DNA of 55,706 nucleotides from Chlamydiia bacterium (GCA_038257035.1 JBBSJT010000002.1:1-55706); one strand, 5' to 3'; shown: positions 14,440 to 17,957, counted from the first letter of the stretch. The notes: a model not told the origin generated them from the letters alone. Numbers and translations: made by a program.

Positions 14440-15774
14440 ATGATTAGATCTAATAAAGCTTTGACTGAAAATTATGGTCTACAAATGAAAGAAGATGACC
14501 CAATAATGCTTTTACCTCCGGAATGTATAGGAGAAATATTTTCAAATCTTAACTGTATTGAGTTTCAATCGTCAATAACTGTGAGTCGTTTGTGGAGTAA
14601 AAAAATCATCCATGCCGCAAAAATGAAAGAATTTAAATTCTTAAATGATTTTACAAAGCTCACTTATGAATATTTAGAAAAAAATTTAAATAAAACTGAA
14701 AACCATTCTACGTTATTCACAAGTCCCGAATTATTAAATTCTCTTAACCTTAAACAAGTTAAAGCATCTATCTATGGACTGTCCGAAAACATTTTAAATA
14801 CATTAAAGGATTTAAAAGATGAGGATTTACAGAAATTAGAAAAATTATCAAAAGAAAAAAAAGATTATGAACCCGCTGTTAGGTTATTTAAAGCTACAGC
14901 CTTATACAAGCGAATTGATGGTGTCGCACAGCTTAATGATGAGCATATTTCGAAATCATGGCTTATAAGAAATATTTCTAAAGATTTATTATCTATGGAT
15001 ATTGTTGATAAAGCAATCGAAGTTACCGCTCAGATTATTGAAACTATGACTAAAGTATTTATACTCGAAGAAATTTCTCAATACCTGGTTCAGATAGGAA
15101 ACCTTCCTAAAGCGATTGTCGTTGTAAATATGCATGAGGTCATTTGGATGTCATCTTCATTTATAAAAATTTGTAAGTTATTACTTGAAAATGGACGAGT
15201 TAAGGAAGCCATTAATGAAACTCTTCAATTTGTCAAAACATGGCCTAAAAAGGAATACATAATTTTTTCTGATTTCATTAATCTTCTAATCGAAAATAAA
15301 TTTATAAATGAAGCGATAGAATTCTTTAATATTTTAGACAAAACATTAAAATCTCAGCTTCTTGAGAATCTTCTTAAACTCTTAATTACAAGCGACAACA
15401 GCTCTACAATGGTTGAAGTTGTAAAAACTCTTCACTCTGATTATCCTGATTCATGTGATCTTTCAAAAATTGCTCTATTGTTAATTAATAGCGGACATGA
15501 TGCTAAAGGCTTCGAAATTGTCAATCTTGTAACTGATGATTATCAAAAAGCATTCACGTTGAAGCTGATTTCCGCTTCATTAATAAACGAGGCTGATATT
15601 GATAAATCCATAGAGGTCGCTAACATGATAGATGAGGCTTTCCCGCTTATGAAAATAAATGTCCTTCGAAATATCTGGACTTTTTTGGAAAATAACGGAA
15701 ATGATGCAAAGGCAACAGAGGTTGAGAATATGATTTATGGCCTTCAATATTTATCCTGGTGCTCCATCCAGTAA
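14440..15774 (+). CDS. F-box protein with helical repeats and C-terminal CaaX (CSIQ)
   Basis: F-box-like LLPPECIGEIFSNL...VSRLW; TPR-like 'DKAIEV' helices; ends WCSIQ*. Confidence 0.8.
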   Translation: MIRSNKALTENYGLQMKEDDPIMLLPPECIGEIFSNLNCIEFQSSITVSRLWSKKIIHAAKMKEFKFLNDFTKLTYEYLEKNLNKTENHSTLFTSPELLNSLNLKQVKASIYGLSENILNTLKDLKDEDLQKLEKLSKEKKDYEPAVRLFKATALYKRIDGVAQLNDEHISKSWLIRNISKDLLSMDIVDKAIEVTAQIIETMTKVFILEEISQYLVQIGNLPKAIVVVNMHEVIWMSSSFIKICKLLLENGRVKEAINETLQFVKTWPKKEYIIFSDFINLLIENKFINEAIEFFNILDKTLKSQLLENLLKLLITSDNSSTMVEVVKTLHSDYPDSCDLSKIALLLINSGHDAKGFEIVNLVTDDYQKAFTLKLISASLINEADIDKSIEVANMIDEAFPLMKINVLRNIWTFLENNGNDAKATEVENMIYGLQYLSWCSIQ

Positions 15775-15923
15775 TAGAAACTGTCTAATTTAGCTATACC
15801 TTTCTAAAGTAATGTAAAAGTTAACGTATTACATACGGGTTAATTTGGCGTAAGCTTTTTAGATTGCTTTTATTTTTAAATTAATATATAATATGATTAA
15901 TAACTTTTAATTAAAGGATAAAA

Positions 15924-17957
15924 ATGATTAATTCTAAAATTACAATTGATAATAACAACTGTTTAAAATTTAATGAAGAATGTCCAGTAAATCTTTTACC
16001 CCCTGATTGTCTAAATCATATATTTCAATATTGCTCAAATCCTGAAGTGGAATCTTTTACGGAAGTAGGCTCTGTTTGGAAAAAGGTAATCGTGGATGAA
16101 AAACATAAAGAATTTTCACTTTTGCTTAATTTTTCAAAATTTCTATCCGAAGAATTAAAGGAAAATAAAGAATTTTGTAAAAAAATTAGTGATATTAATG
16201 AATTTTATAACATGTTAAACAATCCTACAAGTTTAAAGCAGGCTAAATTATGTGTTGGTAAATTAAAAAATGAGATTTTAAACACATTAAAAACATTAGA
16301 AGAAAAAGATTTAAATTTTCTAAAAGATTTATCAGATAAAAACTTTCAACCCTATTATTCCAGCTTTTTGGGTTTAGCGGTAATTGAAAAAGAAATTGAT
16401 CAAGTTATATCTTTACCCAAGAATGAGTTTAATAAAATAAAAATCTGTGAAAAATTAATCAATCTAGGAAACATTGCTAGAGCCCTCGAAATTCTCGATT
16501 TACTCACAGATCCAAGCGGTCAAAACTATTATAAAAACGAAATTTTTCTAAATATCGCCAATTTTTACTTGGATAATGGAAATTTTACAGAAGCAGAGAA
16601 ATTTTTAAAAATGATTGGAGGGTACGCTATACAAAGTACTTTAGAGGAACATTTAAAAAAATCAATTAATAATTTTGATTTTGACAAGGCTATTGCGGTT
16701 GTAAATATGATGCCTAGTGTTATTGGAAACAGAGTCCCTTGTCTTTTAACTCTATTTGATATTATAATTGAGAAAAAGGAGCTTGATAAAGCAATTAAAA
16801 TTATAAGTTTGTTACCCGAATATTATGAGCAAAATCAATGTATTAAGAAAGTTCTTAAATTATTAATTGAAAATGGGAAAATTACTGAGGCTCAACAAGT
16901 TATCAACCTTTGTAGTAAGTATGAAGATCAAGTAATTGATGATGTGTGTAAGCTATTTATTCAAAACAATGATATTGATTTTGCATTGGAAGCATTAAAG
17001 TTACGTAAAAAAGACTATCTTAAGTTTATTAAACTTGAGCAAATCATTGATTTATACATTAAAAATAAAAATTTGGATAAAGCACTAGATGTTTTAATCG
17101 TAATATTTTCGGATGGTATTTGTTATGATAAATTTTCTGAATCATTATTTAAAATTGGAAAATATGACGATGAGCTTAAAGAATTTTTAAAAAATAATAT
17201 AGACCAAAAATCAAGCATCGAACTTTTTTTTGACATTTTAATTAGGGAAGGAAAAATTTCTAAGGCAATTGAAGCTTTTAAAACAATGCCTAGATACCTT
17301 ATAAATAGCCCATCTATTAAAGAAAATATTTTTAGCCATTTATTCGAAACAGAAAATTTAGAAATGGTATTACATTTTTTTGATTCAATTGATAAATTTG
17401 AAAACATGAAATTTTTTGAACCAGTCTTTAAATTTTTAATAAAAACTAAAAATTTGGATAAGGCAAATGAAATTTTCGCTAAGAATTTTGATTATAATCA
17501 ATTGCATGCATTTAAGATTATTTCCAAGCTTTTGTTAGATAGCAACAATATTGACAAACTAGTAGAAATTTACAAACTAATGCCTGAATACGAAAAAAGA
17601 AACATCAATATTTTTGAGCTTTTAGTAAAAAATAATAATATTAATAAGGCCCTTGATCTTGTCAGCACGTGCCCTAAACATCAGCAAGAAGACGCGATTA
17701 TGATGATTAGTTTTGCATTATCAGATTTACATCAAAAAAATATTAAACTGGTTGATTTTCTAATCGATAATAATAATGCTGAGCAAGCCTTAAAAATTGT
17801 CGATTTGCTACCCGAAAATCAACAGACTGATGCACTTATAAGCCTTATCACTTATTTTTTAGCAAAAGAAGATTTAGTGAAGGTTGCAGAGCTTGAAAAA
17901 ATTCTGTTGAGCAAACCTCAATCTGATAAATCTGGTAGATCATGCTCCATTCAGTAG
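15924..17957 (+). CDS. F-box protein with TPR-like repeats and C-terminal CaaX (CSIQ); paralog of the upstream gene
   Basis: LLPPDCLNHIFQYC...VGSVW; repeated (L/F)DKA(I/L) helices; ends GRSCSIQ*. Confidence 0.8.
   Translation: MINSKITIDNNNCLKFNEECPVNLLPPDCLNHIFQYCSNPEVESFTEVGSVWKKVIVDEKHKEFSLLLNFSKFLSEELKENKEFCKKISDINEFYNMLNNPTSLKQAKLCVGKLKNEILNTLKTLEEKDLNFLKDLSDKNFQPYYSSFLGLAVIEKEIDQVISLPKNEFNKIKICEKLINLGNIARALEILDLLTDPSGQNYYKNEIFLNIANFYLDNGNFTEAEKFLKMIGGYAIQSTLEEHLKKSINNFDFDKAIAVVNMMPSVIGNRVPCLLTLFDIIIEKKELDKAIKIISLLPEYYEQNQCIKKVLKLLIENGKITEAQQVINLCSKYEDQVIDDVCKLFIQNNDIDFALEALKLRKKDYLKFIKLEQIIDLYIKNKNLDKALDVLIVIFSDGICYDKFSESLFKIGKYDDELKEFLKNNIDQKSSIELFFDILIREGKISKAIEAFKTMPRYLINSPSIKENIFSHLFETENLEMVLHFFDSIDKFENMKFFEPVFKFLIKTKNLDKANEIFAKNFDYNQLHAFKIISKLLLDSNNIDKLVEIYKLMPEYEKRNINIFELLVKNNNINKALDLVSTCPKHQQEDAIMMISFALSDLHQKNIKLVDFLIDNNNAEQALKIVDLLPENQQTDALISLITYFLAKEDLVKVAELEKILLSKPQSDKSGRSCSIQ

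Follow-up and report, generated by a model that had tools for sequence, protein, structure and literature searches.

We found that a 55,706-nucleotide stretch of DNA from a Chlamydiia bacterium (GCA_038257035.1; JBBSJT010000002.1:1-55706; hereafter the window) carries two adjacent genes, here named A and B, that encode proteins with an F-box near the N-terminus, a solenoid of tetratricopeptide- or pentatricopeptide-like (TPR/PPR-like) repeats, and a C-terminus that reads C-S-I-Q, a CaaX box of the type recognized by eukaryotic farnesyltransferase. Both proteins are among about 15 effector-like proteins that end in a CaaX box in this genome, and they are probably part of a group of about 15 effectors that are lipidated by the host. 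The reading that we favor, and consider fairly probable, is that A and B are host-prenylated and membrane-anchored adaptors of Skp1-Cul1-F-box (SCF) ubiquitin ligases, and a convergent chlamydial counterpart of Legionella AnkB. The CaaX tail looks as if it has been maintained by selection, judging from its retention in orthologs, its enrichment at exactly four residues from the end (position −4) in both the genome and the wider family, and its restriction to accepted last residues (position X of the motif).

Tandem Gene Pair and Its Features

Genes A (14440..15774) and B (15924..17957), which like all features of the pair described below lie on the plus strand, encode proteins of 444 and 677 amino acids that end in YLSWCSIQ and SGRSCSIQ, respectively. 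The lengths, positions, and identical C-S-I-Q-stop ends that a preliminary description of the window had given for the two genes all agree with the open reading frames (ORFs) and with the tail codons (TGC TCC ATC CAG TAA in A and TGC TCC ATT CAG TAG in B). The two proteins share 27% identity over 400 residues (BLASTP, E 2e-22), which identifies them as true but old paralogs. Outside the four CSIQ codons, the 3′ DNA of A and B is unalignable, so a recent copy or gene conversion does not explain the common tail. At the other end, both proteins have the F-box-like motif noted in that description (LLPPECIGEIF in A and LLPPDCLNHIF in B), together with a post-F-box segment that is common to the two paralogs (LKQVKASIYGLSENILNTLKDLKDEDLQKLEKLS in A and LKQAKLCVGKLKNEILNTLKTLEEKDLNFLKDLS in B).

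The pair belongs to a large family of chlamydial effectors, within which A and B are old tandem paralogs. In this family, a short N-terminus that is disordered precedes the F-box, which is followed by a conserved linker of helices and then by a solenoid of TPR/PPR-like repeats. In A, the N-terminal 22 residues (14440..14505) are predicted to be disordered by AlphaFold, with predicted local distance difference test (pLDDT) values below 50 at residues 7–9 and 13–22 and averages of 50 and 49 in the first two 10-residue blocks. By analogy with the family representatives of Domman et al. (2014), these 22 residues are a candidate type III secretion signal. The F-box of A (residues 24–54; 14509..14601) was located by PF00646, a family profile, and the modeled helices. 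It lies within a conserved N-terminal module of F-box and helical linker (residues 15–200; 14482..15039), which was delimited by an alignment of this module (A2) and a hidden Markov model (HMM) envelope of 15–200. TPR-like helical-hairpin repeats occupy residues 201–440 (15040..15759), where the model shows paired helices and the sequence aligns with the repeats of B, and the CaaX box (C441-S-I-Q444; 15760..15771) is followed directly by TAA.

The corresponding F-box of B is a weaker match (residues 24–54; 15993..16085) that was placed by column-for-column alignment with A and the family F-boxes. Its conserved N-terminal module covers residues 15–195 (15966..16508; HMM envelope 15–195, 146.5 bits), and the TPR/PPR-like repeats (16509..17903), identified by TPR_19, PPR, and TIGR00756, are ~34–36 amino acids each and have a [DN]KA[IL] anchor that recurs at a spacing of 30–69 residues. 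The repeats are followed by a polar, mildly basic tail (LLSKPQSDKSGRS; 17904..17942) and then by the CaaX box (C674-S-I-Q677; 17943..17954) and TAG. In the 16 residues that precede the Cys of B, which include KPQSDKSGRS, there are four K/R compared with two D/E, and this tail is largely kept in the orthologs P0006 and P0007.

F-Box and Repeat Architecture

In single-sequence searches with the Pfam F-box profile PF00646 (cut-off 20.5 bits), residues 24–54 of A scored 18.6 bits in hmmscan, which is below the cut-off, and 22.6 bits in the genome search, which is above it. At the family level, the F-box, a helical motif of ~40 residues with conserved L-P, I/L..I/L, L, and W positions, is recognized by the profile made from A2, an alignment of the N-terminal module (the first ~200 residues) of 18 sequences. 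At E ≤ 1, 44 PDB sequences matched this profile; the majority, among them every top-scoring one, are F-box proteins, and the alignment falls on the F-box. The best matches were FBXL5 (7e-5) and FBXW7 (3e-4), followed by Skp2, Cdc4, beta-TrCP, and TIR1, and in these alignments the profile runs unbroken along 37 F-box positions in FBXL5 and 32 in FBXW7, a stretch that takes in the core of L-P, I/L, and W. Several members of the family also exceed the Pfam F-box cut-offs. The F-box assignment of the preliminary description thus holds when checked by HMM comparison of the family, with borderline Pfam scores for the single sequences. The linker part of the module has its own signature, NL..VK...L.E.ILN.LK.L...DL..L.

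The family is large. Against a library of representatives at 50% identity, the A2 profile found 1145 sequences at E ≤ 1e-3 and 554 at E ≤ 1e-10. The genome studied here has 22 family members spread over many contigs, and 98 F-box matches in total, of which 38 are over the cut-off. In ESM Atlas, which we used for leads only, the scores were 0.84 and 0.83, and the cluster at rank 2 is named F-box domain-containing protein.

The AlphaFold model of A, based on a 69-sequence alignment, has a mean pLDDT of 89.4 and a predicted template modeling score (pTM) of 0.80. It is all-helical, with helices at residues 27–35, 39–46, and 50–83 across the F-box, the third of which extends into the linker, and with a regular helical-hairpin solenoid that runs to residue 443. 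At E ≤ 1e-3, a Foldseek search with this model gave 69 matches in the PDB, the top ones being TPR superhelices (such as the OGT TPR domain, LGN, and consensus TPR proteins). The match to the OGT TPR domain has an E-value of 6e-6 and a probability of 1.0. Template modeling (TM) scores of the matches are low, at 0.2–0.3, which indicates that the superhelix of A has its own geometry and a different superhelical pitch. For B, the repeats were recognized by TPR_19 (75.5 bits, 4e-21), PPR (30.2 bits), and TIGR00756 (PPR, 36.7 bits), all over the cut-off. The TPR/PPR-like alpha-solenoid is accordingly assigned by family scores in B and by Foldseek in A, and the Pfam scan found no ankyrin family in either protein. 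It had been proposed that TPR-like repeats are used here in place of ankyrin repeats. This is correct for A and B themselves, but the same genome also has a pair of proteins that combine an F-box-like motif, ankyrin repeats, and a CaaX box (see below), so the TPR-like repeats are no simple substitute for ankyrin in this organism.

Conservation of the CaaX Tail

Close orthologs of both proteins were found among metagenomic sequences. P0002 has 77% identity to A and the same length of 444 amino acids, and it ends in CTIQ. The orthologs of B are P0006 (62% identity), which ends in CSIQ, and P0007 (60% identity), which ends in CTIQ. The end C-[ST]-I-Q is therefore found in 5/5 sequences of the two ortholog groups, with the Cys exactly four residues from the end, Ile at a2, and Gln at X in A, B, and all three orthologs; a1 is the sole position that changes. 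This is the most permissive position of the CaaX motif, and farnesyltransferase accepts S, M, Q, A, and C at X, as in the yeast protein Ydj1 (CASQ).

To look beyond the close orthologs, we surveyed the tails of the best 150 of the 1145 family representatives. The motif C-x-[ILVM]-x occurs at −4 in seven of the 150, compared with zero to two at offsets 3 and 5–15. Five of these seven come from lineages other than those of A and B (KRKKCLIQ, CEIL twice, CRIL, and CIIS), and several are over the Pfam F-box cut-offs. Among the tails is RVKRKKCLIQ, and the representative P0069 (349 amino acids) ends in SSSRVKRKKCLIQ, where a polybasic stretch is followed by the CaaX box. By sequence, this end resembles a plasma-membrane signal of the K-Ras4B type placed on a chlamydial F-box family member.

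For the 13 CaaX-bearing rows in a tree of 172 N-terminal modules, nine changes are needed, and the well-supported branches force at least two, which indicates that the tail was gained or lost several times. The clades A + P0002 and B + P0006 + P0007 have 100% support each, the backbone of the tree is weak, and one common origin of the two clades is compatible with it. Further CaaX ends were found in related genomes. One of the three family matches in two genomes of the same genus ends in CQIQ (L264, G002:C96), and two Pfam-positive F-box proteins from another genus (G011) end in CLVC (G011:C2:307371-308396, minus strand) and CSIA (725794-727389, minus strand). These ends show that CaaX-tailed F-box proteins are scattered over the family, even where a genome has no overall excess.

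Genome-Wide Excess of CaaX Ends

The survey of C-termini suggested in the preliminary description was carried out on 1876 ORFs of at least 100 amino acids, taken as the longest ORFs after an overlap filter, and it yielded a clear enrichment at exactly the CaaX position. C-x-[ILVM]-x occurs at −4 in 23/1876 ORFs, compared with two to nine at every other offset (3 and 5–30). The expectation is 5.9 from the internal rate of 0.0031 per position (binomial p = 6e-8). Housekeeping or membrane proteins account for eight of the 23, which is approximately the number expected by chance. Pfam identifies an FAD monooxygenase, endonuclease III, Obg, an ABC ATPase, a ribonucleotide reductase, and a glyoxalase, and two more were recognized by eye as ribosomal protein S8 and a small membrane protein. 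In four of these eight, the last residue is K, D, R, or W.

The other ~15 tailed ORFs, including A and B, are effector-like or without family, namely, F-box, ankyrin, Sel1, or unknown proteins. They comprise two further members of the A/B family (C33:17033-18196 and C33:18293-19384, which end in CIVM and CVMM); the pair with F-box-like and ankyrin domains (G000:C10:13633-14946 and 15240-16805; CVIF and CIIF); a weak F-box protein (C14:6737-7594; CTLF) and its neighbor (C14:7573-8160; CTIF); and a paralog of this neighbor on another contig (C94:5174-5902; 34% identity, CIIS). The remaining tailed ORFs (C75:12-1190, C21:22573-23229, C26:4796-5143, C84:8556-8993, C84:9024-9470, and C1:49301-49684) are a Sel1-repeat protein (CLIQ) and five proteins without a family match (CLVQ, CILQ, CQIL twice, and CSIL). 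In all 15 effector-like tails, the last residue is S, M, Q, A, C, L, or F, a group whose background frequency at that position is 0.36 (p 2e-7); the 15 proteins lie at 10 loci and are not independent, so the true significance is lower than this value. Cys at −4 is also more frequent in F-box ORFs (9/88) than in others (26/1788; Fisher p 2e-5, a value inflated by tandem paralogs). Searches for relatives gave no match in five relatives for a C33 CaaX protein and only repeat-level matches for the Sel1 protein. In some of the CaaX proteins, a second Cys stands just upstream of the box (CSCSIL, CKCTLF, and SCYFCQIL), and the C1 protein has a lysine run (KKKK); on sequence grounds, these features are like the additional membrane signals found in Ras proteins.

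The excess was not seen in two comparison sets. Among 80 conserved chlamydial loci, which served as a control, the −4 motif occurs in 1/762 ORFs. The single tailed ORF is a 458-amino acid ankyrin-repeat protein from another chlamydial metagenome genome (L201:6973-8349, minus strand) that ends in GGSQGGSQCVLM, which reads as a flexible linker followed by a textbook CaaX box. In the first 1.18 Mb of the genome from another genus (G011), the motif occurs at −4 in 4/915 ORFs, compared with one to seven at other offsets, and two of the four are the F-box proteins with the ends CLVC and CSIA.

The F-box-like/ankyrin pair belongs to a second family in which the tail is conserved. The Cys is kept in 6/6 members at 41–53% identity, with the ends CVIF, CTIF (two), CIIF (two), and CTIS; four of the six are metagenomic homologs (CTIF, CTIF, CTIS, and CIIF). 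A last residue of F or S suggests geranylgeranyltransferase I or dual specificity. The −4 motif is found in 0/114 other ankyrin matches. The F-box score of this pair is sub-threshold (18.6 bits), and hhalign gives a probability of 2.6% between the A/B module and the ankyrin family, though the aligned stretch is the F-box. The pair is part of a four-gene F-box cluster that starts ~1.5 kb from the gene for the type III export gate SctV.

Proposed Role and Alternative Explanations

If A and B are prenylated SCF adaptors, the bacterium would inject them through its type III system, as findings on related F-box/TPR proteins suggest (Domman et al., 2014). The SctV gene is present in one copy in the genome (C10:7748-9757). 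In the host cytosol, farnesyltransferase would recognize C-S-I-Q and farnesylate the Cys, a step for which the sequence rule and the selection signals argue; among host enzymes, farnesyltransferase is indicated because X is Gln. The tail would then be trimmed and methylated by the normal host pathway, and the lipid might hold A and B on a host membrane, possibly that of the inclusion. The F-box would recruit host Skp1 and Cul1 and the repeats would recruit substrates, by which ubiquitination would be directed to that membrane, as with AnkB. No protein-prenyltransferase alpha repeats (PPTA) were found in the bacterium's own genome. A search of the genome for Skp1 was likewise empty, a weak blank given that the control matched in no genome. 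Both partners would hence have to come from the host.

Several observations weigh against this reading. With PF00646, B scored 13.3 and 15.8 bits, below the cut-off of 20.5, and A is borderline. The CaaX box of A closes a confidently predicted helix (residues 422–443; pLDDT of 83 in the last block) and follows the hydrophobic residues YLSW, and there is neither a basic patch nor a second Cys near the tail of A. Prenylation substrates usually have a flexible polar linker before the Cys, and a single farnesyl binds membranes weakly. With no basic tail, and with its Cys at the end of a predicted helix after YLSW, A is the less certain substrate. Furthermore, a search for orthologs of A in 40 relatives gave matches to the N-terminal module only, with no ortholog in two genomes of the same genus, so the conservation of the tail rests on three metagenomic proteins. 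The CaaX box is lacking in 141/150 representatives, 18/22 family members in the genome, and 21/21 distant homologs in the relatives, which makes the tail an add-on rather than a trait of the family. The close orthologs, by contrast, all keep the terminal Cys (3/3 at 60–77% identity).

Some of these points would also fit an explanation in which A and B are secreted F-box effectors and CSIQ is no lipidation signal, being an inherited accident or serving some other use, such as a contact in the last helix or recognition by a chaperone. The placement of the tail of A inside a confident terminal helix after hydrophobic residues, the scarcity of CaaX ends in the family, and a possible common descent of the tail shared by A and B, since a single origin of the two is compatible with the tree, are all in its favor. 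We nevertheless regard it as unlikely: the motif is enriched at −4 alone, in this genome as well as across the wider family; the last residue is of an accepted type in 15/15; two unrelated families retain the Cys and vary a1 and X among allowed residues; and the 3′ DNA of A and B is otherwise unalignable. We also give little credence to the possibility that A and B are host-prenylated and membrane-anchored, with F-boxes too divergent to build an active SCF ligase, and act as scaffolds or Skp1 traps. The F-box scores, sub-cut-off in B and borderline in A, could be taken in this sense, and the third F-box helix continues into a 34-residue family-specific linker helix that may alter the Skp1 interface. 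However, the family profile covers 37 F-box positions of FBXL5 and 32 of FBXW7 with the core included, related members pass the cut-offs, and Skp1 is bound by Legionella effectors whose F-boxes are similarly short (PMC7830128).

That A and B are not bacterial effectors at all, and instead represent misbinned host (eukaryotic) DNA or proteins that act inside the bacterium, is highly improbable. The F-box and the CaaX box are eukaryotic features, and the G+C content falls to 27–30% over 14–18 kb compared with ~35% in the flanks. Yet the genes lie on a 55.7-kb contig with chlamydial core genes on either side, next to a 126-amino acid gene that is paired with a transaldolase gene in 26/80 chlamydial loci, and they have compactly spaced reading frames without introns. 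This genome has 22 members of the family on many contigs, and there are 1145 representatives overall. The empty search for a Skp1 gene points the same way, weakly, as the control matched nowhere.

Comparison With Known Effectors

AnkB (LegAU13/Ceg27) of Legionella pneumophila is a Skp1-binding adaptor that is anchored on the pathogen vacuole by a host-farnesylated CaaX box (PMC7542358, PMC7830128, PMC4951486, PMC4322725). AnkB and A/B both have an N-terminal F-box, a substrate-binding repeat domain, and a C-terminal CaaX box, and injection is known for AnkB and inferred for A/B. The AnkB-like design recognized in the preliminary description is matched by A and B, which have an F-box, repeats, and a CaaX box, and the three-part design of AnkB is also found in the F-box-like/ankyrin pair of this genome. 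The differences are that AnkB has ankyrin repeats, whereas the repeats of A and B are TPR/PPR-like and these two proteins have a conserved helical linker in addition, and that the bacteria belong to different phyla, with AnkB delivered through a type IV system (Dot/Icm) and A/B putatively by a type III system. No AnkB chain is among the 44 PDB matches of the A2 profile, and past the F-box there is no evident homology, though no AnkB sequence was compared directly with A and B. The likeness of A/B to AnkB is one of design and is probably convergent. The tail of AnkB is CLVC, unlike the CSIQ of A and B.

To our knowledge, Parachlamydiaceae are the largest bacterial reservoir of F-box proteins. 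The F-box/TPR expansions in this group (NEX2 and the F-box superfamily) have undergone fast gene birth and death and often form tandem clusters, and a heterologous assay showed the type III signals of family representatives to be functional (Domman et al., 2014; PMC4209131). As in A and B, the F-box in these families is N-terminal and the TPR is C-terminal, and the 98 F-box matches found here are this known expansion. The DUF294 mid-domain of NEX2 was not found in A or B by the Pfam scan, which sets them apart from NEX2 as described and places them in the wider chlamydial F-box superfamily. The main text of Domman et al. (2014) has no mention of CaaX, prenyl, farnesyl, or lipid.

Other CaaX-ended effectors offer partial parallels. 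Legionella LegU1 and MavK are F-box effectors with a putative C-terminal CaaX box whose farnesylation is untested according to a review (PMC7830128); as here, the combination of F-box and CaaX recurs within one bacterium, while the repeat and accessory domains differ from those of A/B. Salmonella SifA and the Legionella Pel proteins are injected effectors with CaaX boxes that are prenylated by host enzymes for membrane targeting (PMC4951486, PMC3417404). The set of 11–12 Pel proteins is a close parallel to the ~15 CaaX proteins found here. Unlike A and B, SifA and the Pel proteins have no F-box, and SifA is geranylgeranylated and also S-acylated. An in silico CaaX screen by Al-Quadan et al. 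(2011) covered 17 mammalian or plant pathogens (as cited in PMC3417404). The preliminary description knew of no chlamydial example, and our search of the full-text literature also found no published chlamydial CaaX effector, with the limit that the 2011 screen could list a protein of a pathogenic Chlamydia. A preprint (10.1101/2024.11.28.625222) concerns prenyltransferase domains encoded by chlamydiae, which is a different matter.

F-box/TPR effectors of Parachlamydiaceae are already published. Of the present results, the repertoire of CaaX ends across the genome is of greater interest. It is quite possible, if slightly doubtful, that environmental chlamydiae have repeatedly added CaaX boxes to type III effectors whose architectures are unrelated (F-box/TPR-like, F-box-like/ankyrin, Sel1, and several unknown folds), with ~15 host-lipidated proteins in this genome. 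In that event, prenylation by the host would provide chlamydial effectors with a general addressing system that evolves easily, and could explain the sorting of part of a very large F-box arsenal to membranes such as that of the inclusion. For A and B, the AnkB strategy would have arisen independently in a second phylum with a different secretion system. The CaaX tail provides a concrete and testable address label for a subset of chlamydial F-box proteins, and the comparison of −4 with neighboring offsets, which yielded ~15 candidate lipidated effectors in one genome, is applicable to every intracellular bacterium.

Genomic Context

The source organism is an uncultured amoeba-type chlamydia with a genome assembly of 2.37 Mb in 210 contigs (96% complete), in which the window is contig 2. 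Chlamydial core genes around A and B include the operon for a V-type ATPase, DnaK/HrcA, SMC, and SerRS. The nearest relatives of the neighboring transaldolase, at up to 72% identity, are from Parachlamydiaceae and Chlamydiales metagenome genomes. The small upstream gene of 126 amino acids is found together with the transaldolase gene in 26 of 80 related chlamydial loci. Neither A nor B is present in these 80 loci around the transaldolase gene, save for one distant family member of 938 amino acids without a CaaX box, which indicates that the pair is an insertion into a conserved neighborhood; a related-locus search with protein A as the query gave no match. Within window positions 14001–18000, the G+C content is 27–30% over the pair compared with ~35% in the flanks. 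Given this low G+C content and the absence from the related loci, the pair was probably inserted at its present position and is evolving fast.

Downstream of gene B, a consensus scan marked a possible terminator-like hairpin (17983..17997, plus strand), which is weak evidence; the locus has no listed RNA holder. Directly upstream of A is a gene (12870-14372, plus strand) for a 500-amino acid protein with no Pfam or NCBIfam match. By eye, this protein has two hydrophobic stretches with a short loop between them (approximately residues 283–330), a bilobed pattern that is typical of chlamydial inclusion-membrane (Inc) proteins. Farther along the window, another effector-type gene (50578-52446, plus strand) encodes a protein with an F-box-like domain (30.7 bits) and Sel1 repeats (9e-37) that ends in STSWL and has no CaaX box. 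At 1.8 kb downstream of B, a gene at 19795-20751 (plus strand) encodes a 318-amino acid protein with an Otubain/OTU cysteine-protease domain (Peptidase_C65, 1.5e-12), which is likely a deubiquitinase effector located beside the two putative ligase adaptors.

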